IMG/VR virus record: IMGVR_UViG_3300042486_001111
DNA: 64,000 nucleotides
Origin: a virus
Lineage: Duplodnaviria > Heunggongvirae > Uroviricota > Caudoviricetes
Reading direction: 5' to 3' (one strand)
The position numbers and the translations under genes are program-made. A model generated the notes under the pieces. The model did no database searches. It was not told where the DNA came from and saw only the letters and a program-made list of their open reading frames with translations. Of the stretch, positions 504-63,351 are shown piece after piece; the stretch's first letter is position 1; each line of letters begins with the position of its first letter.

Positions 504-559
504 AATATTTTTATTTATATATAAATATATGATAATTATTAAAATGATACTAAAAAAGT

Positions 560-1279: not shown

Positions 1280-1505
1280 ATATTATAAATATTATTTTTT
1301 ATGTAAAATTTGTATGATTGAATTATTTTTTATACATTTGACTTAAAATAGATAATTATGAATATGATTGTTTTTAGAAATCTTAATAGTACAGATAGAA
1401 TGGTGACTAAATTTTTAGTATTACCTACTAAGATTGGTGGTGTTTGGAAATGGTTACAGGTTGTAACCTTTAGAGAAGATTTTGTTAATAATAAATGGAT
1501 AATAA

Positions 1506-1796
1506 TTGAGTAATATGAAATTAAGTGATTTATGTGAAATTAAAACTAATTTTCCTGAAGCGGATTTTTGGTTGGTTAGAAAGGGTAGTGAAGATAGTGT
1601 AGGTTATCCTGTGAAAGATTTTAATCCAGAACATATTGGTATTAAAGTGACTGCGACTGATATACTTCTACCAGAATACCTTTACTACGTTATGTTGAAC
1701 CTATTTAATCAAGGAGTGTTTAAAAACAACTCTTATGGTACATTGAATTTAAAGAACATACGGGTTGAGGATGTTAGGGGAATTCGTCTAAGATAA
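1506..1796 (+). CDS. hypothetical protein (96 aa), plus-strand island
   Basis: Plus-strand ORF after a 225-bp intergenic region and followed by a hairpin terminator. Confidence 0.4.
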   Translation: MSNMKLSDLCEIKTNFPEADFWLVRKGSEDSVGYPVKDFNPEHIGIKVTATDILLPEYLYYVMLNLFNQGVFKNNSYGTLNLKNIRVEDVRGIRLR

Positions 1797-1834
1797 AAAA
1801 ACCCACTATGGTAGCGAACCTAGTGGGTTTAAAA
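1794..1834. terminator. bidirectional intrinsic terminator (A-run, cccacta/tagtggg hairpin, T-run)
   Basis: The motif aaaaaacccactatggtagcgaacctagtgggttt is seen directly. Confidence 0.55.
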
Positions 1835-1939
1835 TTGTCCGTAGACAATAACGGTCCTAATCCGTTTCTCTTTAAATTTTATTATAAATATTTTGTTTTT
1901 ATAAAATTTTTTATTAAATTTGTTTAAAATTATAAAGTT

Positions 1940-2413: not shown

Positions 2414-3127
2414 CTATTTGTTAGTACTTAGTATATCATTTATTGGTTTATCGAATCCAATACCAATACCGTTATTTGATATTAATACACCACCATTACA
2501 AATTTTGTTAGATTTAGTAACTGGTCCTCCTTCTAAGAAAAATATATCTGTCGCTAAAACATCATCACCTAATTTGTCATACTTGGCGTTAACACCCACA
2601 CATCCTGCGTCACCACTATTACTCGAAACATTTAACCTTTTCCAAGACATTATATTTGGGTTACTTAATGGTTTTAACCATAATAAAATTTTACCGTTAG
2701 TCATTAAATCTCTCAGAGATTTATCTGGAAATTTTTTAATAGTCCCAGCCTGATCAAAAGTAGTCAACTCTTCTGTAGTTAAACTACTCTCAACATCGTC
2801 AATATAATCAACAGAATTAATTTCCTTTAAGTAGGTGATAGGTTGTCTAAAATCAATTGTAGCACCCTCCCAAGCACTTGACTTATCATCAAATGTTAAA
2901 ATATTACCAACACTATCATAAATTTCAAATTGTTTTTGTGGGTTAAACCCAAACTTTACTTTAATATCGCTAACATAATTAGGTAACTCACTATTTAGGG
3001 CGGATACCAATTCACCGTTTATTTTTCTAAGTAATGTAGTTATATCGACAACAGATTCGTTTTCACTTATAACTCTTTTAACTATTCTGTTAAGATCACT
3101 TTCAGTTAATCTAATAATTTTTTTCAT
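2414..3127 (-). CDS. leader family A protein (MKKIIRLTESDLNRIVKRVISE...)
   Basis: Start moved to the internal Met that begins the conserved family A leader. Confidence 0.6.
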   Translation of the reverse strand: MKKIIRLTESDLNRIVKRVISENESVVDITTLLRKINGELVSALNSELPNYVSDIKVKFGFNPQKQFEIYDSVGNILTFDDKSSAWEGATIDFRQPITYLKEINSVDYIDDVESSLTTEELTTFDQAGTIKKFPDKSLRDLMTNGKILLWLKPLSNPNIMSWKRLNVSSNSGDAGCVGVNAKYDKLGDDVLATDIFFLEGGPVTKSNKICNGGVLISNNGIGIGFDKPINDILSTNK

Positions 3128-3401: not shown

Positions 3402-4262
3402 TTATCTTCTTCTTCTTACTTTAAATGGATTTCCACCTGACTTACTTTGGTACCTATCAAAAATTCTTCTAGACGTTTCTTCGTCACTAGTATTTAAATC
3501 CCATTTATTTTTCCCATCTCTTCCATATTTACTTTTTCTGAATGAATCAAAATCTTCAAACTCATCCTCATCAAAGTCATCATAATCTAATTTACCTGAT
3601 CTATTATTTCTATCCACTTTATATTCATCATCGAATGTACCGTAGTATTCATCGTCATCGTTTACATCCTTATCACTAACTCTGTAATATTTATTCACTC
3701 TTTCTTTTTCTTCAGGTGATAAGTTACCAAAATTTAAATCACCTAAAACTGGATGTCCATCGTCCATACCACCTAATTCACTTAACATAGTTTCATTAGT
3801 TCTTTTTCTATGTACATTAGATATCAATGTATTACCAATTACTCCACCACCTAATGCAGTACCTAAAGCCATTTGTAATACGTCTTCCGCAGAAATACCA
3901 CCTGCCATTGCAATACCACTAACTAAACCAACTAAACTAGTTAAACCTACTGTTGACATTTTTCTCTTCCAATACTCACCTTTACTTATTTTTTTTGGTT
4001 GCGCATCAGTATAATCGGAATATTCATAATCTTCATTCATTGAGTCTAAGTTATCTGATAATTCAGATGCAATTTCTGGATTATTCTGAAATATTGTTAC
4101 TAATTTTTGGAAATCTGGATTATTTTCTATTGACATTCCACTAAAGTCAGTTTCATTGCCTAGTTCTTCAGATGATGATACCCATTCCTCTTCACTTTCT
4201 CTTATTACTCTTTTTACAATTCTATGTAAGTCTGATTCTTTTAATTTTACAATTTTTTTCAT
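3402..4262 (-). CDS. leader family A protein with central Gly-rich hydrophobic segment and acidic C-terminus
   Basis: N-term MKKIVKLKESDLHRIVKRVIRE; glycine-zipper-like stretch GLVSGIAMAGGI...ALGGGVIG. Confidence 0.6.
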   Translation of the reverse strand: MKKIVKLKESDLHRIVKRVIRESEEEWVSSSEELGNETDFSGMSIENNPDFQKLVTIFQNNPEIASELSDNLDSMNEDYEYSDYTDAQPKKISKGEYWKRKMSTVGLTSLVGLVSGIAMAGGISAEDVLQMALGTALGGGVIGNTLISNVHRKRTNETMLSELGGMDDGHPVLGDLNFGNLSPEEKERVNKYYRVSDKDVNDDDEYYGTFDDEYKVDRNNRSGKLDYDDFDEDEFEDFDSFRKSKYGRDGKNKWDLNTSDEETSRRIFDRYQSKSGGNPFKVRRRR

Positions 4263-4315
4263 ATCAATTATTTTATTTATAAATATATTATGACTCTAAA
4301 AAGTTTTATCTTTTA

Positions 4316-5571: not shown

Positions 5572-6093
5572 TTATTCTGTAGGATAATCTATATACAATT
5601 CAACAATATCGTATGTTCTAATATTATTGAATAAATTGGATTCTTCTGTTAGTATCATATCTATGATCATTTCTTTTATTTCACCCTCTATTTCCCAACC
5701 AACATCACTATCCATAATTAGTTCATCAGTTATATTAATAGGTTTGGTTTCACCATCTTCTGTTAAATCTACAGTACCACCTTGTTCAATTTTAACATAT
5801 ATTCTAATCATTTCACCAAATGTACTATGTTCTAATGAAACAGATGCTTTAGTATATTGAACGAAATCTATTTCAGTTACTTTAAATAAAAATTCATATG
5901 ACCCTGAATATTGGTACGATGTAGTATCAAATAATTCACCCTCTAATTTTTTTAAACTATTAACCTCAAAACCTACGACACCGTTTAAGTATTCATCCTC
6001 AGATAAACCATATACATCTACAAAATCACTTCTATTTTCTAAAGCCCAAGATGGATTAGATAATTTACTCAGTATTTTTTTTATGTAGTTCAC
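5572..6093 (-). CDS. hypothetical protein (173 aa)
   Basis: Intact ORF. Confidence 0.45.
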   Translation of the reverse strand: MNYIKKILSKLSNPSWALENRSDFVDVYGLSEDEYLNGVVGFEVNSLKKLEGELFDTTSYQYSGSYEFLFKVTEIDFVQYTKASVSLEHSTFGEMIRIYVKIEQGGTVDLTEDGETKPINITDELIMDSDVGWEIEGEIKEMIIDMILTEESNLFNNIRTYDIVELYIDYPTE

Positions 6094-6132
6094 TTATAAT
6101 ATAATTTATATTAATAAATATAAGGAAGGTAT

Positions 6133-6794: not shown

Positions 6795-6834
6795 ATAACA
6801 AATATAGTAAAAATTTGTTATATCGTCAAATGAA

Positions 6835-7488
6835 TTATTCGTAAAATGTTACGAAGTATTCTATAATACCTCCAGAAGAGTATCTCACAGGCATCACTTT
6901 CTTATCGTAACCAGGCATATTCTCATATTTTCCGATAACCTCTTCCTTACCAGCCTCACCACCATTCCATCTTCCTCTTCTTTCTAGTTTATAACTTTTA
7001 TCAGATGATTCTAAAGGAACACCAATAGTGAATTCGTTACCCGACTTTTCATAATCTATATTATTTATGTCTGGTTTTAATTTCTTTCCTTTAAGGTACT
7101 TGTTTATTTCATATGTTAAAACATTACATAACTGATGTATTGAATCACCAGTACCACCACCATTTTCACACTTACCGTGTTTTATTAAATACCCTGTGGT
7201 TGGTCCATCGTATGATACTGAAAAATAACTATCACTCTTAGATATAACAATTTTAGGTCTACCATTGGTTCCATTGAAATAAGATTCTCCACCACAATCT
7301 GCCCAACAGTTACAACTAGTACAACAACTTGGTTTAGCGGATTCAGATTCCTCACCTTCAACTGGTTCTTCTGTATCACCTTCATATGTTTCGATATCGT
7401 CAACTAAATTACCGAACATTCTCTCTTCAGTAAAAAGAGATTTCATCCTTTCGATAGTTTCGTTTAAATTTTTATTAATTCTTCCCAT
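6835..7488 (-). CDS. Cys-rich protein with family C-like N-terminus (..NLNETIERMKSLFTEE)
   Basis: N-terminal resemblance to family C; cluster CCTSCNCWADCGG. Confidence 0.5.
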   Translation of the reverse strand: MGRINKNLNETIERMKSLFTEERMFGNLVDDIETYEGDTEEPVEGEESESAKPSCCTSCNCWADCGGESYFNGTNGRPKIVISKSDSYFSVSYDGPTTGYLIKHGKCENGGGTGDSIHQLCNVLTYEINKYLKGKKLKPDINNIDYEKSGNEFTIGVPLESSDKSYKLERRGRWNGGEAGKEEVIGKYENMPGYDKKVMPVRYSSGGIIEYFVTFYE

Positions 7489-7577
7489 TTTTAGTTTTTA
7501 TATAAATATATTAGATTTAACAAAAATATCCCATCAAGAGGGGTTGGGGTGATTGAACAGTTCGGACGTACAAAGGT

Positions 7578-8684: not shown

Positions 8685-9167
8685 TTATTGTCTATTCATA
8701 TATTCCCCACTATAATATTTTTTGTATGCGTGTGGATTTCTTCTAATATGAACTTTACCTGTCTCAGGATTTCTTAATTTATCAAAATCTCTTCTAGTTC
8801 TTAACGGTTTAAAATTATCATTAGGTATTTCACTTCTTTTTAATTCTGTGAAATCATCAAACTCATAATCTTCCCATTCTCCAGAATACTTTGGGTCATT
8901 GTGAAATGACCAATGTCCTCGATTTGTCATATACCTACCATATGGGTTTGAACTTAACGGATCATACCAAGAGTATGTACTATCCCATCCTTCAGGATCC
9001 CATCTATCTCTGACAGGTTTGGGTTCGTACTTAAAATCTGGAAAAGGTAGATCTTTTTCAAGCCAAGGTCTATTCTGATTTTTTTGAGTAAAGTCATCAG
9101 ATTCGTTAATAACTCTTCTAACGATTCTTTGTAAATCTGATTCAGTTATTCTTACAATTTTTTTCAT
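8685..9167 (-). CDS. leader family A protein (MKKIVRITESDLQRIVRRVINE...)
   Basis: Start set at the internal Met (ATG at 9165-9167) that begins the conserved leader. The longer ORF (to 9281) would run through the terminator at 9200-9226. Confidence 0.6.
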   Translation of the reverse strand: MKKIVRITESDLQRIVRRVINESDDFTQKNQNRPWLEKDLPFPDFKYEPKPVRDRWDPEGWDSTYSWYDPLSSNPYGRYMTNRGHWSFHNDPKYSGEWEDYEFDDFTELKRSEIPNDNFKPLRTRRDFDKLRNPETGKVHIRRNPHAYKKYYSGEYMNRQ

Positions 9168-9199
9168 AATTATATTTTTATTTATAAATATTACGAAAA

Positions 9200-9226
9200 A
9201 TAAAAAAACCCACTCCGTAAGTGGGT
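9200..9226 (-). terminator. intrinsic terminator (cccact/agtggg hairpin + T7 on minus strand)
   Basis: aaaaaaacccactccgtaagtggg; the A-run becomes a T-run on the transcribed strand. Confidence 0.55.
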
Positions 9227-9351
9227 TGCCCATCTTTAGGTAATGGGAGTGTAAGAACAAGTCTCTAACCAAGTCCATCACAATTTTTGCACGGACACAA
9301 ATTCCATATTAGAGGGGCTGGGGTGATGGGACAGTTCGGTCGTACAACCGA

Positions 9352-11235
9352 TTAAAATCCCCAATCATAAGACTCCTTTAATTTCTTCATATAGTCGTAC
9401 CAAACAATTTTAGTCTCCTCACCAGTAAGCCCATAATTATTCTTACAGTAACTATCAAAATAAATTAACTGAGAATCTAACCCACTATAAGTATTATTTG
9501 TCGATAAACCAAATGTGTGTTCATAAACCGATTTAAATCCAGTCCTACCTGCGGAACTGCCTGGATAATAATAAGGAGGGTTAAACCAACTATTACCAAC
9601 TTCGGTATCCTTAAACAACCAATCAACAATCTTATCTAAATAAGCCTGTTTCTTATCGTCAGATTCATTTATGGGTTTAAGATCATACATTATAGATTCT
9701 TTATTGTACCTATCCTTAATAATTTTTTTATAGTTATTCCAAATGTATTTTGTCTCATCATAGTTTAACCCATAAGTATCCCTACAAGTTATCTGTATAT
9801 CCGAAGACATACCCCACGAAAGTTTATTTTTTAAATCATCAATAAAACTAGGTAACGGTTTACCATTCGGACCTATCTGAGAAAAAGGATATATTATAAC
9901 ACCCGTTTCATATCTAATTATAGTATCGTCAACAAACCACTTAAGAATCTTATCCAAATATTTTTGTTTCCTAACTTCAGATTCATTTAAAGAATTGTAT
10001 TTTTCAGATTCATATAAATCTTTCATAAACCCTTTCCACACATATTCAGTCTCATCTTCTGTAAGTCCATATTGTTCCTCACAGAATTTTTTAAAATAAT
10101 TCTTCTGAATTGCGAATTTTACAGATTCTACATCAGTAACGTATTTTAATAAACCAAACGTTTGTTTATAAAGAGAAGAAAGTGTGATACTATTTTCTGC
10201 GTACAAATTACCAGTTTTATATGGGGGTTCAAACCAAAGACTATTCACGTCTGTATCACTAACCAACCAATCAATAATCTTATTAAGGTAATTCTGTTTC
10301 TTATCATCAGATTCATAGATAGGTTCATTAGTAGGATCGTCACCAAACATAGTGTTCCTCATTATATCCTTATATTTCCCCCATACATAAGAAACATCTT
10401 TTATATATGTTATACCATATATTTCCTCAATGTATTCCATAAAACCACCTATAGGAATAACACTATCCTTATGAAAAAGAATTTTATGGAACGGTGTAGA
10501 ATTATCAGTATTTCGTCTAGTTGCAATCTTTTGAGTAAAAGGAAAAAATATTTCCCTTTCCTCATAATCCACTTTGGTATCCTTAACTAAAAAATCTACA
10601 ACCTTATCTAAGTACTTTATTTTTCTATCGTCAGACTCATTAAAGTAGAGGGGACTGACATTATTACCAAATACAATATTATACATAATAACCTTATATG
10701 TCTCCCAAACATAATCAATGTCCTCCGTTAAATTAATTCCATACATTTCCTCAATGTATTCCGTAAAACCATCAATAGGAATATATGTATCAAAAAGACG
10801 TTTATGAAAAGTTGTGAGATTACTACTACCTTGTCTAAGTGAGTTATTATATGTAAAAGGAAAAAATAACGTCTTATTATCATAATTTACTTTGGTGTCC
10901 TTAACTAAAAAATCAACAACCTTATCTAAAAAGTTTTTTCTTCTGTCATCAGACTCATTGATAGAACCACCTTTATTATTAATCTTTTCTTTAATCATAT
11001 CAATATAAATACCCCAAACATACAGAGATTCTTCATGAGTTAAACCATAGTTGTCTTTACAGTATTGAGAGTATCTACCCTTATGAAAAAAATAATCTAA
11101 ATTGGCGTCACTAATATATAATCTGTACGATGGAAAAAAAGGAAAATCTATATGGTTATCCCCATAGTCTATAATAGTGTCCTTAACCAGAAACTCTACC
11201 ACCTTATGTAAAAAATTTTTTCTATTGTTCTCCAT
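9352..11235 (-). CDS. 627-aa protein made of six tandem ~100-aa modules (DKVVDFLVKDT...FFPF...YGLT.E..YVW.Y)
   Basis: Six recognisable repeats, each starting R/K-K-x-x-[FY]L[DHN]K[VI][VI][DE][FW]LV[KS]DT and ending [YE]YGLT..E..YVW..Y. Confidence 0.6.
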   Translation of the reverse strand: MENNRKNFLHKVVEFLVKDTIIDYGDNHIDFPFFPSYRLYISDANLDYFFHKGRYSQYCKDNYGLTHEESLYVWGIYIDMIKEKINNKGGSINESDDRRKNFLDKVVDFLVKDTKVNYDNKTLFFPFTYNNSLRQGSSNLTTFHKRLFDTYIPIDGFTEYIEEMYGINLTEDIDYVWETYKVIMYNIVFGNNVSPLYFNESDDRKIKYLDKVVDFLVKDTKVDYEEREIFFPFTQKIATRRNTDNSTPFHKILFHKDSVIPIGGFMEYIEEIYGITYIKDVSYVWGKYKDIMRNTMFGDDPTNEPIYESDDKKQNYLNKIIDWLVSDTDVNSLWFEPPYKTGNLYAENSITLSSLYKQTFGLLKYVTDVESVKFAIQKNYFKKFCEEQYGLTEDETEYVWKGFMKDLYESEKYNSLNESEVRKQKYLDKILKWFVDDTIIRYETGVIIYPFSQIGPNGKPLPSFIDDLKNKLSWGMSSDIQITCRDTYGLNYDETKYIWNNYKKIIKDRYNKESIMYDLKPINESDDKKQAYLDKIVDWLFKDTEVGNSWFNPPYYYPGSSAGRTGFKSVYEHTFGLSTNNTYSGLDSQLIYFDSYCKNNYGLTGEETKIVWYDYMKKLKESYDWGF

Positions 11236-11542
11236 ACTTTGATATTAATAAAGTTGCCAATTTTATTCCGTACATATCCATAACTCTACGACACTCATCT
11301 TCTGTTAACCCATAATATCCCACAAGGTATTTAATGTCATCGGTACCGATTAACCATCCACTATGTAACCACTCCTTTAGTTCATCTTCCGTATAATAAA
11401 ATTCTAATTCCTCAATACCATACATTGGAAAATTCACACCTATGTGATCTCTGTTGGAAGGTTTTGTCCAGTGTTTGGTTCTCTTAACTAAATCGTCAAC
11501 AACATAATTGAAATATCTTCCTAATTTATCCTCCATATACAT
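11222..11542 (-). CDS. single-module member of the same repeat family (YVVDDLVKRTK...YGLTEDECRRVMDMY)
   Basis: Shares the module; overlaps the upstream gene by 14 nt. Confidence 0.5.
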   Translation of the reverse strand: MYMEDKLGRYFNYVVDDLVKRTKHWTKPSNRDHIGVNFPMYGIEELEFYYTEDELKEWLHSGWLIGTDDIKYLVGYYGLTEDECRRVMDMYGIKLATLLISKYGEQ

Positions 11543-11569
11543 AATATAAATATTGAAATATTTGGAAAC

Positions 11570-11887: not shown

Positions 11888-12171
11888 TACAATGTCAAAT
11901 TATAGGGAATAAAAAAAGGGATAATTTTTTTCGTTTTACAGATCACACTGTTACGATGATTATATTATCCCTTCTTATGTGATGAAGTGTAACCATATCT
12001 TTTGTTCAATACGTTACGTCCCTTCATCTAATCTACGTTGTCCAGTGATGACAAACAATTGTTCATCCATAATCACCTTTTCCTTCCATAGGGTGGGGAG
12101 GAAGGAAGGAACCCCGTAGATTAATATATCAAACAACTATGATACAATATTAACTATATTAAATTAAAAAG

Positions 12172-13044
12172 TCAATACCCATATCTCTTTTTTACACTCT
12201 CTTTTCTAGTATAATATTCAGAGGATCTTAAATACTGATCCAACCCTCTACCATTACTATCTATATAGTCTATAAGTTTTCCATCACCATATGTAAACCA
12301 TTCTTTATATTTAGTACCAGAGTTAGGATAATTACTTTCCTTATATATTACATTACCATCATCATCGTATTCATCAATAAAATAATTACCGTTTCTAGAT
12401 TCCATATATCTAGATTGTCCATATATATCTGTAACGTATATGGCGTCTACTACATCCTTCACCACTAAGTCCTCATTAAATACTTTAGATATAATACCAT
12501 CCCATTCATCTCTTGGTATCCCTAATGATTCTAGATCATACCTAAATGGTGGTTTCAATGTATCTATTATTTTATCTATTAGTTTATCACTATACACAGA
12601 CTCATTGAGATCATAATCTGGATCCTTTACATCAGATATTTTACCCTCAGAGTTTTCATAGTATATAGATTCACCCTTATCATTAAATATTGATTTCTCC
12701 CAATATTCATTTCCTTTACCATCTGTTTTAAATAGATATGTTACATTATCGTTCTTATCGAATTCTCTGATCACATAGTCACCACCTTCACCTTCATAGT
12801 ATAATATATTAGTTCCCTTATCTGTTACTATACCACCTGTTATTTGTTCATCACGATAGAATGAAGACACTAATACATTTTGATTATATAATGTATAAAA
12901 CACACCTCTCCATTCATCCTCTGGTACACCTAATCTTTGTAGATCCAAAAAGTATGGTGGACGTATTACCTTAGATAGTTTATCATAATATCTTTGTTTA
13001 TAATCATTCGATTCCTTAATGATTCCTTTAATTGTTACCTTCAT
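12172..13044 (-). CDS. protein with two PPY..DL.SLG.P..EW modules and MORN/YwqK-like Gly-Tyr repeats
   Basis: YYDKLSKVIRPPYFLDLQRLGVPEDEW and LIDKIIDTLKPPFRYDLESLGIPRDEW; YYEGEGGDY...YYENSEGK repeats. Confidence 0.5.
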   Translation of the reverse strand: MKVTIKGIIKESNDYKQRYYDKLSKVIRPPYFLDLQRLGVPEDEWRGVFYTLYNQNVLVSSFYRDEQITGGIVTDKGTNILYYEGEGGDYVIREFDKNDNVTYLFKTDGKGNEYWEKSIFNDKGESIYYENSEGKISDVKDPDYDLNESVYSDKLIDKIIDTLKPPFRYDLESLGIPRDEWDGIISKVFNEDLVVKDVVDAIYVTDIYGQSRYMESRNGNYFIDEYDDDGNVIYKESNYPNSGTKYKEWFTYGDGKLIDYIDSNGRGLDQYLRSSEYYTRKESVKKRYGY

Positions 13045-13104
13045 TTTTTTATAAAATATATTAATAAATATTTGGTAGTGTCAAAAATTCTTCGTACCTT
13101 TGTT

Positions 13105-13313: not shown

Positions 13314-14306
13314 TTAATAAGTTTTTTTTAATCTATGAAAGTTCTCCATAAGGAATACTCTATACTGATCCCATAATGAATTAATGGTTTGTGGATCCAA
13401 TCCATAAGTTTCAATACAGTAATGAGTAAATGGTTTAGGTGGTTCATCTATAAACATTATAATCTCTATTACGGTATGTACTCTTTTACTCTTATAACTA
13501 ATAGATACTGGTTGATCTAAGAATGGTACACGTATTAAATCTTCTCCTATCTGATATGTATCATCCTTTAAGAACTGTAATACCTTATCAACAAAACGAT
13601 CCATTCTCTCATCTGATTCATTAATATTAAACTTCTTTTGAAGTATTCTATTTTCAAATACATTCTCATAGATATATTTTAATATCATATCAGTTAAAGT
13701 GATAGATACATATTGTCCACCATCTGGTAATCCTTCAGTCATTAACTGTATACAACATCTGAATATATAATCAGTATACCTATTAGAAAATGATTTAAAA
13801 TCTTCACGTGGATCACCATCCTCCAACCATACATTTAAACCTAACAAACCTTCTCTAGTTCTACCGAATTCATTAATGTATAATATATCTACATTATCAC
13901 CAAAACTATGTACCAACCCTATTGAGTCAATGATCCTATTATATACTCTCATAAAGAATTTATAATGTCCCTCACTGTTGAAACCGTATATTCTTAATGT
14001 CTGTCTCGGATCACTTTCGGATGGTTCTAAATTACCGTGTAGATATAATTCATTTATACTACCACTAAAATCATAATTAATTGAATCACTATATCTATAC
14101 CATAGTTCTTTACACTCTACTAAAGATAACCCATACTGATCCTTACAGTATTCATAGAAGTTTTTATGTAGTGGTAAATAGAAATTTGTTTGTAACGCAT
14201 ACAAAGGTTGATTAAAAGGATATACTATTCTCAGATCCTTCTTATCTATCTGTGTATCCTTAATAATCGTATCTAATACTCTCTCTATATATCTCTCTCT
14301 ATTCAT
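13314..14306 (-). CDS. two-module member of the DKV..DT / YGL repeat family
   Basis: RYIERVLDTIIKDTQ...YGLSLVECKELWYRY and RFVDKVLQFLKDDTY...YGLDPQTINSLWDQY. Confidence 0.55.
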   Translation of the reverse strand: MNRERYIERVLDTIIKDTQIDKKDLRIVYPFNQPLYALQTNFYLPLHKNFYEYCKDQYGLSLVECKELWYRYSDSINYDFSGSINELYLHGNLEPSESDPRQTLRIYGFNSEGHYKFFMRVYNRIIDSIGLVHSFGDNVDILYINEFGRTREGLLGLNVWLEDGDPREDFKSFSNRYTDYIFRCCIQLMTEGLPDGGQYVSITLTDMILKYIYENVFENRILQKKFNINESDERMDRFVDKVLQFLKDDTYQIGEDLIRVPFLDQPVSISYKSKRVHTVIEIIMFIDEPPKPFTHYCIETYGLDPQTINSLWDQYRVFLMENFHRLKKTY

Positions 14307-14770
14307 ATAATATAAATATAGAGAACCATATTAAAATGAAATATTATCTCCGTGTTCCCAATCTACTAATTCATCTTCCATAGTATTAAATATACGGTGT
14401 GGTAAAAAGTGGTAAGGTACAGTTTTTTGTTAATAACTTTTATACTAAAAAGTTGATTTTTACGTTTTTTTTCCGTATATTTGTAATAGGTTTTTTGTAA
14501 ATTTCAGAAAAAATATAGGGTAAATCTACGGTCAACGCAATGTTTTCTATCCCTTTATGATTAAACGTTAACCAAATTCCCACAATTTACCACCGTAGAC
14601 ATCGATTATTAAAATAACCGTATTTTAATGAGGCAAACACATTTTATACTAAAGGTACAGTTTATAGATTTAATTGTGGGGGTTTCTGGTACACTGTATT
14701 AAACGATCTTTTAAAATATATTATAGTATACCATACAGATAATATAGTGTCTCAAATAGTCTTATTCGAA

Positions 14771-15802: not shown

Positions 15803-15808
15803 ACCACA

Positions 15809-15837
15809 ATTATAATAATTTCATATTACAATGTCAA
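15809..15837 (-). promoter_or_regulatory. consensus sigma70 promoter TTGACA-17-TATAAT, 6 nt before the ATG (leaderless)
   Basis: Minus strand reads TTTTTGACATTGTAATATGAAATTATTATAATTGTGGTATG(gaaaag). Confidence 0.5.
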
Positions 15838-15982
15838 AAACGAATGATACCCCTTTTGTCCGATCATCCCAACCCTTCTTGTGGGTTTTACTTTACATAT
15901 TATAAGGATTTCATTTTACATATTATAAAAAAACCCCTACAGTAATGTAGAGGTTCAAATATTCTTCATATGTATTTATATC

Positions 15983-19361: not shown

Positions 19362-19799
19362 TTACTTCAATGGTGGAAGATTGTCATATTCATCCTGAGC
19401 ATTACCAAAATCAATTGCCCCTTGTATTAATCTGGTTATTCCATTATAGTCATTAGTTGATAATACCATACTGTTTGTTCCTTTAACTTCTTCTAAATAG
19501 TTAATACTTTTTCCCATTGGGAATTTAAGGAAAATAGCAAGTGATACTTTAGATGGGTCGTTCACTGATTTTGTTGCAACCATCACTTTAAATCCCCTTT
19601 TTGGAAGGGAATAAATTTCCATACCATCAATGTTTTTAACATAATTAAACCCATGTTTTACCGTAAATAAATCACTTAATAATTTATTATTGATTTGACT
19701 AAAATCGGAAGATTGTTCACCACCTTCTTCGTTTTCTCGAATAACCCTTCTAACGATTCTATTTAAATCTGATTCCGTAAGTTTTATAATTCTTTTCAT
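19362..19799 (-). CDS. leader family A protein (MKRIIKLTESDLNRIVRRVIRE...)
   Basis: Conserved leader. Confidence 0.6.
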   Translation of the reverse strand: MKRIIKLTESDLNRIVRRVIRENEEGGEQSSDFSQINNKLLSDLFTVKHGFNYVKNIDGMEIYSLPKRGFKVMVATKSVNDPSKVSLAIFLKFPMGKSINYLEEVKGTNSMVLSTNDYNGITRLIQGAIDFGNAQDEYDNLPPLK

Positions 19800-20020
19800 A
19801 ATAATATTTTATTATAAATATATTATATATACAAAAAATCCCCACTTATGAGGTGAGGATTTATCTTTTTCCGTAATAATCGAAATAGTCTTTTCTGTCT
19901 TTAAGTACCGTTACTATCAGAAACGTTATACTTAGTATACTTAATATAATCATATCGTATATATACTAAGATAAACTATATTGTGTAACCTTTGTATATT
20001 ATGAAATTGTTATGATATAA

Positions 20021-20335
20021 TCACCAAAAGGTAATTATATTATCACTACTAGTTTGTCTCCATTGACCTTTACCTGTGGGTTTTTTAAGTTTATCCGATT
20101 CAGGATATTCATTATTATCATATGTTGCCAACATTTTACCTTTACTAGAATTTGGAAGCATCTCATAAAAGGTTAATTTGGTATCATCTTTTTCCCAAAG
20201 TCCTACACCATATCCTGGGTTCCATTTTGATGGTGCGGGTATTTTCATCACCCACTGATTGGGGTCACCTTCATTGATAACTCGTTTAACAATATTAACC
20301 AAATCTGATTCTCTAAGTTTAACTATTCTTTTCAT
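20021..20335 (-). CDS. leader family A protein (MKRIVKLRESDLVNIVKRVINE...)
   Basis: Conserved leader. Confidence 0.6.
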   Translation of the reverse strand: MKRIVKLRESDLVNIVKRVINEGDPNQWVMKIPAPSKWNPGYGVGLWEKDDTKLTFYEMLPNSSKGKMLATYDNNEYPESDKLKKPTGKGQWRQTSSDNIITFW

Positions 20336-20386
20336 ATCTAATATTTTATTATAAATATATGTTAAAAAGAAAAAACCCCTATATTC

Positions 20387-21088: not shown

Positions 21089-21787
21089 TTAAAAATAATT
21101 TATTTCTTTTCTAAAATGATCTTCATCATTTCTTTTTTTATAGTTATTAACCAAAAATTTCACATAGAACCAGTACCCCATCTTCTTAAACCTTCTATCA
21201 TCTTGTGTGACATATCTGTTTATGATTTTAAATTTATCTATTGGGTATTTTTTACTTAGGATAAAATCTTCACTTTGTTTTATCGTCTCATCGAATCCAC
21301 CATAACTATTAAATGATTCTATAGATGTCATAAAGTATGCACCCATAGAAAAGGAAGTTTTTAGTTTTGGGTGTATTTTATTGAATAGATAAAATCCTAA
21401 GTTAAGTGGGAAACCCGATCTACTTTTTAACTTACACGTAACTAAATCGTAATCATTTTCTAATTCATTAAGGGATGACAATATTGTATCATCATCAGTA
21501 AATGTTACATCAGCATCCAAAAATAATACATATTTTGTATTAACCATAGATGCACCCTTATTACGTGCGTACGAAACTTTACCACCTTCCTCAATAAGGA
21601 TTTCATACTTAACTTTTTTCTTAATGTTATTTATTATATCAATAGTATTATCGGTAGAATCACCGTCCAAAATAATAACTTTTGTACCTTCTATGTTTTT
21701 TTGATTGTTTAGTGATAATAGTGTATCACCTATATAATTCTCCTCATCCTTACAAGGTATTATTACTGTTATAAAACTTGATATCAT
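21089..21787 (-). CDS. family 2 glycosyltransferase
   Basis: VIIPCKDEENYI...ILDGDSTDNT...FLDADV motifs typical of GT2. Confidence 0.7.
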   Translation of the reverse strand: MISSFITVIIPCKDEENYIGDTLLSLNNQKNIEGTKVIILDGDSTDNTIDIINNIKKKVKYEILIEEGGKVSYARNKGASMVNTKYVLFLDADVTFTDDDTILSSLNELENDYDLVTCKLKSRSGFPLNLGFYLFNKIHPKLKTSFSMGAYFMTSIESFNSYGGFDETIKQSEDFILSKKYPIDKFKIINRYVTQDDRRFKKMGYWFYVKFLVNNYKKRNDEDHFRKEINYF

Positions 21788-21843
21788 ACTAATAAATACG
21801 TGTGTTTTTTTGTTGTTAGGTTTGTTAATGATTTATTAACAAT

Positions 21844-26818: not shown

Positions 26819-27490
26819 TTAACTACACTTTCCCCAAGAGAAACTTCTAACTCTACATCCCTTTTTTGAAGTGATGTTTATATTTAATGCACATAATATA
26901 GTTTTAAGTAACCATATACCAATCAGTGTAACTAACACTGCACTCGCAATAGTTAACACCAATGCAGGCATTGTAAAGGAACCAAATATTGTTACCAACG
27001 CCATACTGGTACCAAAGAATTCTTTAAGTACTTCTTCCCCTTCAGTTTCTTTCTCCGCCTCAGATTTTTTAGATTTAATATTTTTATAAAGTTTTTTAAG
27101 ATCACCACTACTTAATGTATTAAGGAAATCTACGAACTTATCCAAATATTCTTTGATAGTCTTAAGTGCTTCTTCCGCACCGTCTTTGAATTTCTCTCTA
27201 ACAACCTGTCCGAATTTTTTATCTACATATGCGCCCATATCAGAAAATTGACATATCTCAGTATTGTCTATGGAATCAACCATACTTTGTTCATCTTGAA
27301 CAGTTACACCAATCTCATTCATAATTTCCTCACCACCATCAGACTTTAGTTCATCCATAAATGATTTCATGTTATCATCATCGATATCATATTCTCTAAG
27401 TAAAGTTTTCTGTTCACTTTTAGTTACACCCATTTCATATTCGAAAAGGTATTTAATTTTGTCAATTTGTTGTTCTATATTACGTTTCAT
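26819..27490 (-). CDS. family C-like protein with C-terminal transmembrane segments
   Basis: Start set at MKRNIEQQIDKIKYLFEYEMGVT; hydrophobic C-terminal TM stretch (MALVTIFGSFTMPALVLTIASAVLVTLIGIWLL). Confidence 0.5.
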   Translation of the reverse strand: MKRNIEQQIDKIKYLFEYEMGVTKSEQKTLLREYDIDDDNMKSFMDELKSDGGEEIMNEIGVTVQDEQSMVDSIDNTEICQFSDMGAYVDKKFGQVVREKFKDGAEEALKTIKEYLDKFVDFLNTLSSGDLKKLYKNIKSKKSEAEKETEGEEVLKEFFGTSMALVTIFGSFTMPALVLTIASAVLVTLIGIWLLKTILCALNINITSKKGCRVRSFSWGKCS

Positions 27491-27522
27491 ATTTATTTTA
27501 TATATAAATATACTATTAAACA

Positions 27523-29506: not shown

Positions 29507-29512
29507 ACGACA

Positions 29513-29541
29513 AATATAGAGATTATATTTAACAATGTCAA
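29513..29541 (-). promoter_or_regulatory. sigma70-like promoter TTGACAttgt-17-TATATT, 6 nt before ATG
   Basis: Minus strand reads TTTGACATTGTTAAATATAATCTCTATATTTGTCGTATG. Confidence 0.5.
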
Positions 29542-29542
29542 A

Positions 29543-32759: not shown

Positions 32760-32930
32760 TTTAAGATGCCTTATACTTGTCTATGACTGACCATACGAAA
32801 CCAACCGCAGTCATCAATCCACCAGTAACTTCAGTAACAATCGCCTCATCGAAATAACCCAACATAATTACTGCACCACCCACAGATGTCAATATGTGTC
32901 TGATAAGTCCTAAAATTTGTTCTTTACTCA
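32760..32930 (-). CDS. small membrane protein (56 aa; MSKEQILGLIRHILTSVGGAVIMLGYF...), holin-like?
   Basis: Not in the ORF track (below 60 aa). ATG at 32928-32930, stop at 32760-32762; two hydrophobic segments. Confidence 0.35.
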
Positions 32931-32977
32931 TAATATAAAGTTTTTATAGTTTGTTATTATAATATAAATATAACATA

Positions 32978-33487: not shown

Positions 33488-33613
33488 TTACTTTGTTTTA
33501 TTAGACTTTAACTCTGTTACATTACTCTTACCATATGCATCACATTCAGTTTTTTTTGTAGACGCGCAAGAACACAATAAAAGTATCCCTACAATGATTA
33601 ACATTTTATTCAT
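33488..33613 (-). CDS. putative small lipoprotein (MNKMLIIVGILLLCSCASTKK..., 41 aa)
   Basis: Not in the track. Signal peptide plus lipobox-like LLLCSC; coordinates +/-1. Confidence 0.3.
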   Translation of the reverse strand: MNKMLIIVGILLLCSCASTKKTECDAYGKSNVTELKSNKTK

Positions 33614-34118
33614 ATATTTTAGTTTTTAATTTGTTTTGTATTCTCTTAGTTGCCTTATGTAAATTAGATTTAGATGTACCTTCACAAATACCCAATTTTT
33701 TTGAGATGTCTTTATGTGACATATTTTCTATGTGATAACATTTAAAAACTAAATTATACATAGGACTCAATTTTTCAATTTCTTCATCAATATCTGTCAA
33801 CATATCTTGTTTACAATCTACCTCATCAATAGTATCAAAGTGTAAATTGTCATCATACTCATAAGTATATTTTTTCTTTCTTAAATGATCTAAGGCACAA
33901 TTTCTAAAAATCTTATATAGATAACCGTTTAAATTTTTTACATCTATTGGTGTATCAATTAATTTAAATATTTTTATAAATCCTTGTTGGACAACTTCAT
34001 CCCTATCAAATTCATCTTTAATATATCTTTTAACAGTATCGTACCCTAAAATTTTATATGATTCATAGAATTTAGATTGGGATAGAGTATTACTGTTAAT
34101 GAGATTTAAATTATCCAT
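33606..34118 (-). CDS. sigma-70 family (ECF-like) RNA polymerase sigma factor
   Basis: Region-2-like FIKIFKLID...YLYKIFRNCALDHLRKKK and region-4 HTH ISKKLGICEGTSKSNLHKATKRIQNKL. Confidence 0.6.
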   Translation of the reverse strand: MDNLNLINSNTLSQSKFYESYKILGYDTVKRYIKDEFDRDEVVQQGFIKIFKLIDTPIDVKNLNGYLYKIFRNCALDHLRKKKYTYEYDDNLHFDTIDEVDCKQDMLTDIDEEIEKLSPMYNLVFKCYHIENMSHKDISKKLGICEGTSKSNLHKATKRIQNKLKTKIYE

Positions 34119-34177
34119 ATTTTTTTTAACAAATATACAACATTATATTCTAAAAAACAAATGAGTTTTTAAAAATA

Positions 34178-38665: not shown

Positions 38666-38762
38666 AAAACAATTATATGGATTTTTAATAAAAAAATCAA
38701 CAATCGTTTGTATTAATAAAAAAATTTAGTATATTTGGCGATATTTATAAGATAAATGTTTT

Positions 38763-38972
38763 ATGGAAAAGACAATAAGTGAATTAATTTTAGAATTAAA
38801 GACTGTTTTAGAAAAAACGCACGGTGAACAATTTACTAAATTTTATCTCTGTAAATTTCCTGATGGAAAATGGGAAGCCCTAATTGGTATTAAAGAAGGT
38901 GCCAGTAGAAAAACTGGAAATTACTACAGAATTAATGATGGTGTAGTAGAAGAAGAACACGTAAATTTTTAA
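38763..38972 (+). CDS. hypothetical protein (69 aa)
   Basis: Plus-strand ORF after a divergent intergenic region. Confidence 0.4.
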   Translation: MEKTISELILELKTVLEKTHGEQFTKFYLCKFPDGKWEALIGIKEGASRKTGNYYRINDGVVEEEHVNF

Positions 38973-38974: not shown

Positions 38975-39493
38975 ATGAATATTTTTGTTTTGGATTACGA
39001 TCCTAAGTCGTGTGCACAAATGCATTGTGATAAACACGTAGTAAAAATGATTTTGGAGACGGCACAACTTCTTTGTGGTGTTCATCATATGACAAATCAA
39101 GAAACCGAACATGTACCGTATAAGTTATCACATAAAAATCACCCATGTTCCATTTGGACTAGAGAGTGTATTGAAAACTATGTTTGGTTATGTGATTTAG
39201 GTTTAGAGTTATGTGAGGAATATACATACCGTTATGGTAAGAGACATAAGTCACAGGAAATAATTGAATGGTGTCTTTTAAACCTACCAAAAATTAAAGA
39301 GAATGGTACTGTTACAGATTTTAAGTTGGCGATGCCTGATGAATGTAAAATAGATAATAACCCTATACTTTCATATAGGAAGTACTACATTGATTTTAAA
39401 AAGGATTTTGCTAAATGGAAAAATAGGGATGTCCCAAACTGGTTTAGACTTTCAGATGATTCATTAAAACACCACCAATTGATGTTGCTTTAA
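38975..39493 (+). CDS. hypothetical Cys/His-rich protein (172 aa)
   Basis: Intact ORF; Cys/His pattern HCDKH...C...HH...C. Confidence 0.45.
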   Translation: MNIFVLDYDPKSCAQMHCDKHVVKMILETAQLLCGVHHMTNQETEHVPYKLSHKNHPCSIWTRECIENYVWLCDLGLELCEEYTYRYGKRHKSQEIIEWCLLNLPKIKENGTVTDFKLAMPDECKIDNNPILSYRKYYIDFKKDFAKWKNRDVPNWFRLSDDSLKHHQLMLL

Positions 39494-40043
39494 TTGACAA
39501 CCTATTGATGGTGTCATCATTAAGTTTTGTTTTCTTTCCCGTATAGTCTACACCTAATATACCTATAAACTTATCATCAATACTTTTTATTGAGAATAAA
39601 TAACCTGATTTACAACCAGATTCTTCTGCTATATACTTTAACCCAAAAGTTGCAATTGTTTCGTCTTTGAAATCAATTATCTCTATTACATCATTCTTTA
39701 ATAATTCATTTATTGATTTTGAGAATAGACTAACAGGTATATTTTGAAAATTATTTTGTATAGAATTTACTTTGATGTTAACTGTTTCATATATCATTGA
39801 GAATTTTGCCATCGATTTACCTGTTGGATAAAAATGTCCTCCGTTGTGGAACTGTATCAACCAAACTCTATCTGCACTTATTTCTTCTCTAATTTCCTCT
39901 ATTTTATGTGTTACAACCTCACCTAATTCTAATGTATCCGCCACCATATCAGGTTTCTTTTTCTTCTCTAACCAATTCTTAAACAGTAGTATTGTAATCG
40001 GACTTATAACACCTGTTATGAAAGCAATAATTAACTCCATCAT
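39444..40043 (-). CDS. membrane-anchored protein (N-terminal TM)
   Basis: MMELIIAFITGVISPITILLF. Confidence 0.45.
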   Translation of the reverse strand: MMELIIAFITGVISPITILLFKNWLEKKKKPDMVADTLELGEVVTHKIEEIREEISADRVWLIQFHNGGHFYPTGKSMAKFSMIYETVNIKVNSIQNNFQNIPVSLFSKSINELLKNDVIEIIDFKDETIATFGLKYIAEESGCKSGYLFSIKSIDDKFIGILGVDYTGKKTKLNDDTINRLSIKATSIGGVLMNHLKV

Positions 40044-40100
40044 AATTTTAAACTTTTATATTATAAATATAAGTTCAATCATAAAAGTGAAAAAAATATA

Positions 40101-40946: not shown

Positions 40947-41043
40947 ATCTTTTAGTTTTATATCTACAAATGTAAGGACCTTTTTTCATTCTGCCAAACA
41001 TTTTATACTTTTTTTTTAATATTTATTTCATATATTTATTAAT

Positions 41044-43452: not shown

Positions 43453-43775
43453 TCTACCTTTGGTGAAGGTAAGGTTCTCAAATCTGAATAGTTCTCATAT
43501 AAGTATTCAATAATCATATCCTCATTGGAGTAATACATATTCCATTTGTCGTGATTAAAGAAGTCTGACATATATTCATCTTCATCATCGTAACGATCAT
43601 AGTCTACTAAGTTTTCACCTTCGGTAATGTAATGTTCGTTACACCAATTATAATATTCACTGTCAATTAATTCCCTATAAGAATCTTCAATGTCACCCTC
43701 AACCTTAAAGGTTACTGTAAGTAGTTTGTCTGTATCACAAAAAATTTCATAAATTTCATCTATAATATAATCCAT
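43449..43775 (-). CDS. acidic hypothetical protein (108 aa)
   Basis: Intact ORF. Confidence 0.45.
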   Translation of the reverse strand: MDYIIDEIYEIFCDTDKLLTVTFKVEGDIEDSYRELIDSEYYNWCNEHYITEGENLVDYDRYDDEDEYMSDFFNHDKWNMYYSNEDMIIEYLYENYSDLRTLPSPKVD

Positions 43776-43799
43776 AACATATTTTTGAAAATAAATATG

Positions 43800-48717: not shown

Positions 48718-49800
48718 TTAATCTGTTCTATAAATATAATAAGTTACCCCATTATAATATTCTTCATTTTCACTACCATCATAACCAGATAAAGTATTAC
48801 CTCTGTCTTCATTTTCTGCGAGATATCTCTCTAAACCAGACTCATCGAATGTACAATAATATTCTACTGCCTCCTTAAAACTTAACCCTAAATTATTTAC
48901 AAAATAATCTACACCATCATTATCAATTTCACTAATTATCTCACTCACCATTGTGTCACGTAACTCTTCTCTCGCAGTGTCAAATAGTTCTCTTAACTCA
49001 TCTCCCAATCCTTCATATGTAGTTTGTTTATCCGAAAGTTCTATTTCTAAGTCATTAATCTCTTCTTTCAATTCTTCATATTCTTCAGTACCAAAAAAAT
49101 CTTCATCGTCATCTAACCTCTCTTCTAATTCACTTTCTTTTTCTTCTAAAAGGTTATTTAACTCATCAATTCTTTCCTCTAATATTACCATCCTTTCTTC
49201 ATACTCTTCTCTACTGTCATATCCTGCCTCTGATATTACATCTTCTTCAGTCATATCATCGAGCCTATAATCTGCAGTTTCTTCTGCGTATTGATCAACA
49301 CTATATTGGTCTAACTCTATAAAGTCATCAACGGTATATCTATCTATATTATCTACCCCACCAACTTCATCAACATACCCATCAAAATAGTCTTCCATCG
49401 CACTACTAACCTCATCGTCATCACCTACCGCATAAACCTCATCTGAAGTTAAATCCCTATAAGTATCTAAACCATGATGACTACCTTCGTGTTCTATTAA
49501 AATCGGTGGTATATCTAAAAACATTGACAAAGCAACTAATTCATTATTATATGAAGAAGTATCGTTCACACCTTCTAAATCTGCATCAGTTAAATTATCG
49601 TAATTACCTAATTCATCATAATGATTAGTATAAAGATGTAATATTTCTATTTTAGTATCTGTATCATCTATCGATAATTCATTAGATAGTATATCCCAAA
49701 CTACGCTGGCATCCTCACCTTCACCCAACTTTTTATTAAGTAACTTTAAAACCCTTTTATAAAAGGGAGTTATTTCATTTTCTAATATTAATCTTCTCAT
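48718..49800 (-). CDS. acidic coiled-coil protein (360 aa)
   Basis: Intact ORF. Confidence 0.5.
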   Translation of the reverse strand: MRRLILENEITPFYKRVLKLLNKKLGEGEDASVVWDILSNELSIDDTDTKIEILHLYTNHYDELGNYDNLTDADLEGVNDTSSYNNELVALSMFLDIPPILIEHEGSHHGLDTYRDLTSDEVYAVGDDDEVSSAMEDYFDGYVDEVGGVDNIDRYTVDDFIELDQYSVDQYAEETADYRLDDMTEEDVISEAGYDSREEYEERMVILEERIDELNNLLEEKESELEERLDDDEDFFGTEEYEELKEEINDLEIELSDKQTTYEGLGDELRELFDTAREELRDTMVSEIISEIDNDGVDYFVNNLGLSFKEAVEYYCTFDESGLERYLAENEDRGNTLSGYDGSENEEYYNGVTYYIYRTD

Positions 49801-50616: not shown

Positions 50617-50690
50617 TATTAACCTTTACATTTTACTAATAAATATTAATTTTTGAGTAAATAACCATATTTAATAATAAAAATAAATAA

Positions 50691-51378: not shown

Positions 51379-51407
51379 GAAATTTTAACATATATATAGA
51401 TAGTTTC

Positions 51408-51451
51408 AAGGGATTCTACGAATTTAATTTCACCTAAGAATCCCTTTTTTA
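51408..51451 (+). terminator. strong intrinsic terminator (aagggattct ... agaatccctt 10-bp hairpin + T6)
   Basis: Ends the plus-strand rpsU-ftn island. Confidence 0.6.
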
Positions 51452-51629
51452 TTGCTAAAAATTTGTAGATGTCATATATTCGATCAAAATTTGACATAAG
51501 TTCTTCTTCTTTGGTTTTACCAAGATAGAATAGGACACACCCCTTATTTTCCTTTGTTCCCATCTCCCCATATTTTAATAATAAATATCTGGGAGAATGG
51601 GAATATTGTTATATTTTATACATAAATTT

Positions 51630-57062: not shown

Positions 57063-57108
57063 ACAAAAAAACTTTATTATTGTTATTATCTATAAATATT
57101 CTATAAAA

Positions 57109-57428: not shown

Positions 57429-57466
57429 TTTTTTTATTTTTTATCTTTTTATTATTATATAAATAT

Positions 57467-62754: not shown

Positions 62755-62828
62755 GTGGTCCCTGTTGGGATCGAACCAACCACCTACTGATTATGAGTCA
62801 GTTGCTCTAACCGAATGAGCTAAGGGAC
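62755..62828 (-). tRNA. tRNA-Met (CAT) (elongator or Ile2-lysidine type)
   Basis: GGTCCCT-TA-GCTC-ATTCGGTTA-GAGC-A-ACTGA-CTCATAA-TCAGT-AGGTG-GTTGG-TTCGATC-CCAAC-AGGGACC-A folded by hand; 74 nt. Confidence 0.8.
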
Positions 62829-62908
62829 CTAATGGGTAGAATCAGACGCGTTCTGTCTACCGAGACCTTGTCGTTAACTTTCGTCAGAGCGGAACAAGAC
62901 ACTATTAG

Positions 62909-63345: not shown

Positions 63346-63351
63346 GGTTTG

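Follow-up and report, generated by a model that had tools for sequence, protein, structure and literature searches.

Phage sigma cascades are known from the B. subtilis phage SPO1 (gp28 and gp33/34) and from phiEco32 (gp36). The late promoters of T4 consist of a single AT-only box of 8–9 bp, TATAAATA, with no −35 element, and are served by gp55, gp33 and gp45, of which gp55 resembles sigma-70 in domain 2 only (PMC2988020). Classic promoters of extracytoplasmic function (ECF) sigma factors combine an AAC −35 with a CGT −10 at a distance of 16–17 nt. In Bacteroidetes transcription is unusual, with −33/−7 promoters and no Shine-Dalgarno sequences: the −7 box of F. johnsoniae has nearly invariant T−12, A−11, T−8, T−7, T−6 and G−5 and is followed after 4–5 nt by the transcription start, AT-rich signals near −18 and −28 exceed the −33 element in strength, and translation prefers A-rich, unstructured leaders (PMC6847099). 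A full-text search for work on promoter classes or sigma specificity of Bacteroidetes phages found no study, and Iyer et al. merely list the sigma factors of jumbo phages (PMC7824862). Here we describe an AT-only box that recurs upstream of genes in a 64,000-nt stretch of DNA from a member of the Caudoviricetes (IMG/VR record IMGVR_UViG_3300042486_001111; hereafter the window). An earlier note had flagged this box at 4274–4288 as a palindromic, T4-like late promoter possibly read by the phage's own sigma factor; we call it class A, and the host-type promoters of the same DNA class G.

The box was present at all ten places from which it had been described (10/10), with ATATTTAT(A) cores at 520–528, 4278–4286, 7501–7509, 9183–9191, 13064–13071, 19813–19821, 20350–20358, 27503–27511, 40062–40070 and 57458–57466. 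Its conserved coding-strand word is (T)ATATTTAT(A), or, as an oriented 9-mer, ATATTTATA. When the 60 nt ahead of every open reading frame (ORF) were scanned without bias, ATATTTAT came out as the top 8-mer, preceding 22 genes where 1.6 were expected, and its density is 64-fold higher in sense intergenic DNA than in coding sense DNA (4.34 vs 0.068 per kb). The enrichment holds against dinucleotide-preserving shuffles of the intergenic DNA (22 copies in sense intergenic DNA vs 2.7 ± 1.6, a count reached by 0/300 shuffles), and for the 9-mer in the whole window (19 vs 7.8 ± 2.7 in dinucleotide shuffles, 0/100 of which reach 19).

Conservation of the box is strongly asymmetric, as ATATTTATA has 17 copies on the minus (coding) strand vs 2 on the plus strand and TATATTTATA 11 vs 0. 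Since a plus-strand ATATTTATA at 38741 and a plus-strand ATATTTATT variant at 41032 both lie upstream of plus-strand genes, the orientation of the box tracks that of the gene. The description as a palindrome therefore falls away with this asymmetry; the 12-bp palindrome TATTTATAAATA is exact at two places only, 4274 and 9179. The supposed T4 late core fares no better: TATAAATA is not enriched in the window (30 copies vs 22 ± 5, reached by 10/100 shuffles), 22 of its 30 copies are on the plus strand, opposite to the genes, vs 8 on the gene strand, and it is in sense at 3/10 of the cited sites. The plus strand of minus-strand genes had been read, so that this core is inverted relative to transcription; on the non-template strand the box is TATTTATA, the reverse complement of TATAAATA. 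The example warns that AT words resembling palindromes can pass for a famous consensus when taken from the wrong strand.

E. coli-type sigma-70 promoters are not enriched in the window (132 matches vs 135 expected), the Bacteroidetes consensus TTTG-N19-21-TAnnTTTG is (21 vs 1.9 expected), a search for near-identical DNA among cultured phages found none, and the relatives come from IMG/VR and other metagenomic sources, as contigs of 125–170 kb, among them IMGVR_UViG_3300027659_000009, a 166-kb contig of the same lineage. On these grounds we assign the window to a Bacteroidetes phage and, judging from its sequence, it is the accessory-gene region of a large (∼166-kb), uncultured, Flavobacteriia-like member of that group. 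Its G+C content is ∼30%, its intergenic DNA is more AT-rich still, 98 of its 112 crude ORFs lie on the minus strand, and no Shine-Dalgarno sequence stands ahead of its start codons.

Class G corresponds to the canonical sigma-A promoter of Bacteroidetes, TTTG-N20-TATATTTG; an anchored alignment of 12 sites gives aTTTG-N20-TATATTTGT, with an extended −33 element, TTTGACATTGT, at several of them. The 'TTGACA class' of the earlier note is this −33 TTTG/−7 TAnnTTTG promoter. For class A the anchored alignment of 24 sites gives TTTT-N12-ATATTTATA, and a matrix built on 38 non-redundant sites, which come from the window and its close relatives, gives aTTTTT-N12-A-TATTTATA with no upstream element containing G/C; A-rich sequence follows ATATTTATA on the 3′ side. 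We compared the two classes using boxes ≤45 nt from an ORF start. TTTG at N19–21 precedes 10/11 TATATTTG sites vs 0/11 TATATTTAT sites (Fisher test, p = 3e-5), while TTTT at N9–13 precedes 10/11 TATATTTAT sites vs 2/20 sites of the wider TAnnTTTG set (p = 1.5e-5; background rate 9.3%). As features of the two classes, −33 TTTG and the −26 T-tract exclude each other, and the classes are discrete, just as had been claimed for this second class. With the Bacteroidetes sigma-A promoter (PMC6847099) class A shares the core TATATTT, its position relative to the start codon and the setting without Shine-Dalgarno sequences. It keeps A−11 and the T run of the host −7 box and adds a conserved T-A. In contrast, it has A in place of G−5 at every site, its T−12 is present at 14/24 sites where that of class G is invariant, and instead of −33 TTTG at 19–21 nt it has a T-tract at about −26, one helical turn nearer the box. 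Both hallmarks of the sigma-A class, −7 TAnnTTTG and −33 TTTG, are thus absent from class A.

In the window the distance from class A box to ATG is 3–32 nt, mostly 13–19 nt, with one outlier at 53 nt, comparable with the 4–21 nt of class G; in the 38-site set it is 1–31 nt with a sharp cluster at 1–6 nt (13/38). No ATG lies nearer to the box than the predicted start site permits, and both this minimum distance and the cluster fit the sigma-A rule of a start 4–5 nt past the box. At two class G sites the ATG comes exactly 4 nt after the G, matching the 4–5 nt rule of F. johnsoniae. A cluster of ATGs so close behind the boxes is the pattern expected of transcription starting at the ATG and suggests leaderless mRNAs; as the ATG is at or ≤2 nt from the predicted start, a sizeable fraction of the phage mRNAs may be of this kind. 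Start codons 3–5 nt after the box are found at 29507–29518 and 6795–6806 (class G) and at 1280–1292, 11543–11553, 14307–14319 and 41032–41046 (class A). Upstream, a hairpin and T-run directly precede 8–9 of 23 class A boxes, giving the unit order terminator, promoter, gene, and at these sites the terminator T-run doubles as the class A T-tract at the usual spacing. Together, class A and class G fill most intergenic gaps of at least 35 nt that precede a gene, and several ORF starts of the window were corrected from the box position.

The box is also conserved between phages. In relatives with a sigma factor 58–65% identical to that of the window, box and T-tract are invariant where spacer and flanks have diverged (alignments A1 and A2; Table 1), five boxes, each directly before a gene, occur within 5.8 kb of a relative whose sigma is 44% identical, and the 166-kb contig past the window's left end has 11 sense vs 1 antisense copies, again before leader-family genes. 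Alongside these observations of motif, orientation, position, discreteness and conservation, we consider it very probable that the box is the core (−10/−7-type) of a promoter class that is specific to the phage and separate from the host-type promoters; its function as a promoter, start site, timing and reading factor are predictions from sequence.

Table 1. Class A boxes, class G promoters and associated genes of the window
Feature	Position	Strand	Context
Class A box ATATTTAT(A), flagged site	4279..4286	-	T-tract 4298-4302; ATG of leader-family gene 3402-4262 16 nt downstream
Class A box	521..528	-	before gene 231-503 (MGRLAKQ...)
Class A box	1285..1292	-	5 nt before ATG of gene 983-1279; leaderless-like spacing
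Class A box	1884..1891	-	no ORF downstream; three-hairpin structure ending in terminator follows
Class A box	6114..6121	-	directly after terminator hairpin; 20 nt before GTG start of 5572-6093
Class A box	7502..7509	-	before gene 6835-7488
Class A box	9184..9191	-	directly after terminator 9207-9227; before leader-family gene 8685-9167
Class A box	11546..11553	-	3 nt before ATG of 11222-11542; leaderless-like spacing
ATATTTATT variant	13064..13071	-	before 12172-13044; overlaps TTGACA-N18-TATATT arrangement, hence class ambiguous
Class A box	14312..14319	-	5 nt before ATG of 13314-14306
Class A box	19814..19821	-	after terminator 19836-19862; before leader-family gene 19362-19799
Class A box	20351..20358	-	after hairpin and T-run; before leader-family gene 20021-20335
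Class A box	27504..27511	-	after terminator; before gene 26819-27490; kept in L004, L006
Class A box	32964..32971	-	before holin-like gene 32761-32931; invariant island, diverged upstream region (alignment A2)
Class A box	38741..38748	+	before 69-aa plus-strand gene 38763-38972; tandem with class G promoter 38707-38737
Class A box	40063..40070	-	before gene 39444-40043; T-tract and box invariant, spacer diverged in 5 relatives (alignment A1)
Class A box (ATATTTATT variant)	41032..41039	+	4 nt before ATG of PNK/HAD gene 41044-43452; second copy 41019-41026
ATATTTATT variant	43791..43798	-	before 43449-43775; kept in L004, L006, L014
Class A box	48730..48737	-	before 521-aa gene 47140-48705; inside upstream ORF's 3′ end
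ATATTTATT variant	50639..50646	-	before 49801-50616
ATATTTATT variant	51581..51588	-	before 51375-51563; kept in L017
Class A box	57092..57099	-	after terminator; before 56748-57038
Class A box	57459..57466	-	directly after G7/C7 terminator hairpin; before thioredoxin gene 57138-57428
Class G example, TTTGACATTG...TATATTTG	29511..29542	-	ATG 4 nt after G; predicted leaderless
Class G promoter, TTTG-N20-TATATTTG, before sigma gene	34130..34161	-	11 nt before ATG
ECF-type sigma gene (Sigma70_r2 + Sigma70_r4_2, 170 aa)	33606..34118	-	candidate class A reader
Leader-family genes (N-terminus MKKIVKLxESDLxRIVKRVI)	1-229, 2414-3127, 3402-4262, 8685-9167, 19362-19799, 20021-20335		unrelated C-terminal parts

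A candidate reader of these boxes is encoded in the window itself, where the sigma factor reported earlier at 33606–34118 is confirmed. Because regions 2 and 4 are both present it is ECF-type, and among cellular proteins the ECF sigmas of Flavobacteriales come closest to it (37–40% identity), the source records labelling the homologues 'ECF subfamily'. It is thereby unlike gp55, which has domain 2 only, and the identification of the box as a gp55 late promoter is not supported. The promoter of the sigma gene is class G and is kept in related loci L004, L006, L012 and L014 (as TACATTTG in L014), from which early synthesis of the sigma through the host enzyme is predicted. In the model we propose, a class A promoter would take the form aTTTTT-N12-ATATTTATA. 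Numbered in parallel to the host −7 box, its T-tract would span about −28 to −24 and its box −11 to −3. The host sigma-A holoenzyme would transcribe class G units early, the sigma gene included, and the host core enzyme would then read class A, redirected most probably by the phage sigma. Transcription would start about 5–6 nt past the position matching the host G, yielding mRNAs with very short leaders (about 10–16 nt) or none, and class A would drive single-gene or short units, many of them bracketed by terminators, with leader-family, thioredoxin, holin-like and PNK/HAD genes.

The closest functional analogy to such a two-class system would be the SPO1 or phiEco32 sigma cascade. As there, the phage sigma gene lies behind a host-type promoter, whose activity is predicted, and a second abundant class does without the host consensus. 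Unlike in those phages the sigma is ECF-type and closest to cellular ECFs of Flavobacteriales, the host phylum uses −33/−7 promoters, and the dependence of class A on the sigma is a prediction.

To look for a link between class A and this sigma, we counted the 40-nt upstream regions that contain TATTTAT[AT] in sense and in antisense. The counts are 19 sense and 6 antisense in the window, 63 and 27 in 15 loci of the same lineage, and 111 and 45 in 37 loci with distant sigma homologues, vs 1 and 4 in the first 50 kb of Tenacibaculum phage pT24, 0 and 1 in the first 50 kb of Cellulophaga phage phi38:1, and 2 and 4 in Flavobacterium phage 11b. No homologue of the sigma was found in these last three, so that 52 sigma-bearing loci show enrichment of the box, whereas three cultured Flavobacteriia phages that lack this sigma family do not. 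Host-type boxes in the same three controls number 10/4, 5/3 and 8/2 (sense/antisense; pT24, phi38:1 and 11b), the excess in phi38:1 being weak. A further 48 CCA-enzyme loci of other lineages, considered as controls, had sense about equal to antisense for both class A and host-type boxes, are probably not from Bacteroidetes phages and were left unused.

Other sigma-bearing lineages have abundant bipartite promoters of their own, with a TATATT(T)A core in common with class A: GAGGAAT-N19-CGTATATTTAA in L069 (30 sense vs 7 antisense), GGAAT-N19-CGTATATTAAAA in L097 (25 vs 2) and a TAGGATTACA...TATATTTAT type in L094. In L069 (IMGVR_UViG_3300008267_000022) and L097 (IMGVR_UViG_3300032287_003808) the element A(G/A)AGGAAT-N19-(T)CGTATATT(T)AA stands before nearly every gene, the start context AAAGGTTATG is conserved, the sigma is 37–38% identical and Bacteroidetes-type promoters are almost absent; this promoter architecture looks ECF-like.

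The leading mechanism, although one we would not quite call probable, is that class A is read by the phage ECF-type sigma. As a more specific and tentative possibility, this sigma would have lost AAC/CGT recognition and would read the AT-only, extended −10-like ATATTTATA, derived from the Bacteroidetes −7 box and helped by the T-tract at about −26. Class A has in common with classic ECF promoters that a sigma of ECF architecture is encoded in the same genome and that the 3′ part of CGTATATT in L069 and L097 overlaps its core TATATT. In contrast to them it has neither AAC −35 nor CGT −10 in the 38-site matrix, and only ∼12 nt separate its T-tract from the box. Several further points weigh against the phage sigma as reader. 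Its cellular homologues have CAACC-N16/17-CGTCT upstream, related elements, GGAAT-N19-CGTATATT, occur in L069 and L097, and the recognition helix of region 4.2, GTSKSNLHKA (GTSKSNL[HFA]KA), is nearly unchanged across these sigmas, from which a similar −35 would be expected. In region 2.3 the lineage of the window has W→Y. The L069 sigma gene lies behind that lineage's own abundant promoter type, which fits reading by the host as well as autoregulation. The T-tract is at ∼9 sites also the terminator U-tract, so that its conservation may partly reflect a role in termination, and the co-occurrence of sigma and box, with n = 3 sigma-negative controls, two of them over 50 kb, may reflect shared ancestry only. 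Nor do the downstream genes indicate a temporal class: none is structural, in a window itself without structural genes, so that the label 'late-like' is without support apart from one holin-like gene.

Several of these points would be explained if class A were read by the host sigma-A holoenzyme, either alone, as a −33-independent −7 variant with a T-tract, or with a phage appropriator or activator, the ECF sigma then having its targets elsewhere, outside the window. T4 AsiA and MotA at middle promoters are the model for such a factor, which makes the −33 contact unneeded. Under this explanation the shared TATATTT and ATG distance, the lack of the AAC/CGT pattern of the sigma's relatives and the conserved region 4.2 helix are as expected, the T-tract at about −26 lies near the AT-rich −28 signal of F. 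johnsoniae promoters (PMC6847099), and the sigma gene of L009 has a hybrid promoter, TTTG-N20-TATTTTTAT, carrying A at the G position. However, the near-invariant G−5 (PMC6847099) is replaced at every class A site, T−12 is not conserved (14/24), and a −7 box so weakened should lean more on the −33 element, yet 0/11 sites have −33 TTTG. In addition, the box is not enriched in the three Flavobacteriia phages that use host-type boxes, and a conserved tandem of class G and class A promoters 11 nt apart would be redundant for one holoenzyme. We therefore regard reading by sigma-A as rather unlikely.

The remaining explanations have less in their favour. A T4-type late promoter would require a gp55-like minimal sigma, gp33 and the sliding clamp to be encoded elsewhere in the ∼166-kb genome and the consensus to have shifted from TATAAATA to TATTTATA, and we hold it to be improbable. 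It would account for a single AT box of 8–9 bp that has no −35 and precedes the expected start by about one helical turn (PMC2988020), and the duplex 8-mer is the same. T4-style accessory genes are present in the window (RnlA-like ligase, PNK, thymidine kinase, thioredoxin, tRNAs) and Pyr_excise in its relatives, whose contigs are 125–170 kb; group 2 jumbo phages, Bacteroidetes phages included, are reported to encode sigma factors and gp33 (PMC7824862). Still, the consensus is reported to be highly similar among T4 relatives (PMC2988020) and sense TATAAATA is not the conserved word here (8 sense vs 22 antisense), the positioned T-tract is not a T4 late feature, and the genes behind the box are accessory, none of them structural. 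Among the annotated window ORFs there is no gp55-type minimal sigma, and gp55, gp33, gp45 and structural genes were not found in the window or in ∼40 kb of extra same-lineage sequence. A box that is not a promoter core at all, serving instead as the operator of some DNA-binding phage regulator or acting in the RNA, as nuclease site or translation enhancer for instance, would suit its AT-richness just upstream of start codons, the perfect 12-bp palindrome at two sites and the A-rich, unstructured leaders favoured in Bacteroidetes translation (PMC6847099). But the palindrome is exceptional and conservation asymmetric, the ATG distance of 1–31 nt leaves no fixed ribosome register, and many boxes directly follow a terminator, so that the box would often escape transcription from upstream. 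As most of these intergenic regions have no other conserved promoter element and the positioned upstream T-tract fits a DNA-level signal, we give this explanation very little credence. Finally, chance could be suspected in DNA of 30% G+C with still more AT-rich intergenic regions, in which TATAAATA itself is not enriched, but it is already refuted by the intergenic dinucleotide shuffles (0/300), the 17 to 2 strand bias and the conservation of orthologous sites. Class A thus belongs to none of the T4 late, canonical Bacteroidetes sigma-A and classic ECF promoter families, each time lacking a defining feature.

If the phage sigma does read class A, a sigma cascade leading from host to phage would be defined for a lineage of ∼166-kb Flavobacteriia phages that is widespread and uncultured, and this would be the first promoter specificity assigned to any Bacteroidetes phage sigma. 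The combination of a host-type class, a phage-specific class and a sigma gene behind a host-type promoter amounts to a testable model of temporal control. For Flavobacteriia the two classes offer candidate promoter parts that would be strong, compact and possibly orthogonal, and box positions sharpen the calling of gene starts and operons in phage genomes from metagenomes.

Class A boxes lie, as had been noted, upstream of most leader-family genes (4/6 directly behind a box and 2/6 in units headed by one), and they are not exclusive to this family, standing also before thioredoxin, holin-like, PNK/HAD and other genes. The leader family occurs in L066, L072, L088 and L092 as well and is expanded past the window's left end in the 166-kb relative; leader variants (MKIIxTES…) in distant sigma-bearing phages are again directly 3′ of TATTTAT boxes. 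The proteins of the window include an RnlA-type RNA ligase, a CCA-adding enzyme, a PNK/HAD protein, thymidine kinase, thioredoxin, ferritin, FKBP, a glycosyltransferase, a dTDP-sugar epimerase, a peptidase, a Band_7 protein and a holin-like protein; their functions are accessory, and no recognisable virion or structural protein was found among the annotated window ORFs. Loci around the window-end genes of the 166-kb contig add ∼18 kb, in which all genes are accessory or have no recognised function. For the RNA ligase, pT24 provides the best relative among cultured phages (36% identity); as this phage has hardly anything else in common with the window and is without the box, it was kept as a control only, and a search for Flavobacteriia phages with the thymidine kinase matched unrelated phages only. 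Five tRNA genes (Met, Arg-TCT, Leu-TAA, Glu, Asp) cluster at 62755–63426 (minus strand), adjoining the CCA-adding enzyme and RNA ligase genes. An Rfam scan of the window returned these five tRNAs and nothing else, and four long intergenic regions of 180–464 nt (14307–14770, 11906–12171, 19800–20020 and 15803–15982) have no Rfam match.

Some single sites deserve mention. At 38707–38749 (plus strand) TTTG-N19-TATATTTG is followed after 3 nt by ATATTTATA, before gene 38763–38972, an arrangement kept in L004, L006, L012 and L014, which suggests expression of this gene from both promoter classes. The classic ECF-type class AAC[CT]-N15-19-CGT has one intergenic case only in the window, at 21790–21826 (minus strand) before the glycosyltransferase gene 21089–21787; it is also the sole hybrid site, AAACC-N18-CGTATTTATT, joining an ECF-like AAACC-N18-CGT to a class A core (CGTATTTATTAGT-ATG). 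In phi38:1 (L108, 1–50000) CACTATCAAAA recurs in the 40 nt upstream of 8–9 genes and may be a phage-specific regulatory motif separate from the class A box. The structure that follows the box at 1884–1891 (window 1790–1891, minus strand) comprises ∼85 nt with three hairpins and an intrinsic terminator (minimum free energy −27.8 kcal/mol, z −4.2) and may be a small RNA or a shared terminator module; since a 94% identical copy in L066 (9092–9186) is without the box, the latter may apply. Two mutually similar stretches of ∼50 nt, …TTGTACG[TA]CCGAACTGT[TC]C[AC]ATCACCCCA[AG]CCCCTCT…, lie at 7529–7577 and 9303–9351 (minus strand), each directly 3′ of the stop codon of the upstream gene and 5′ of a class A promoter.

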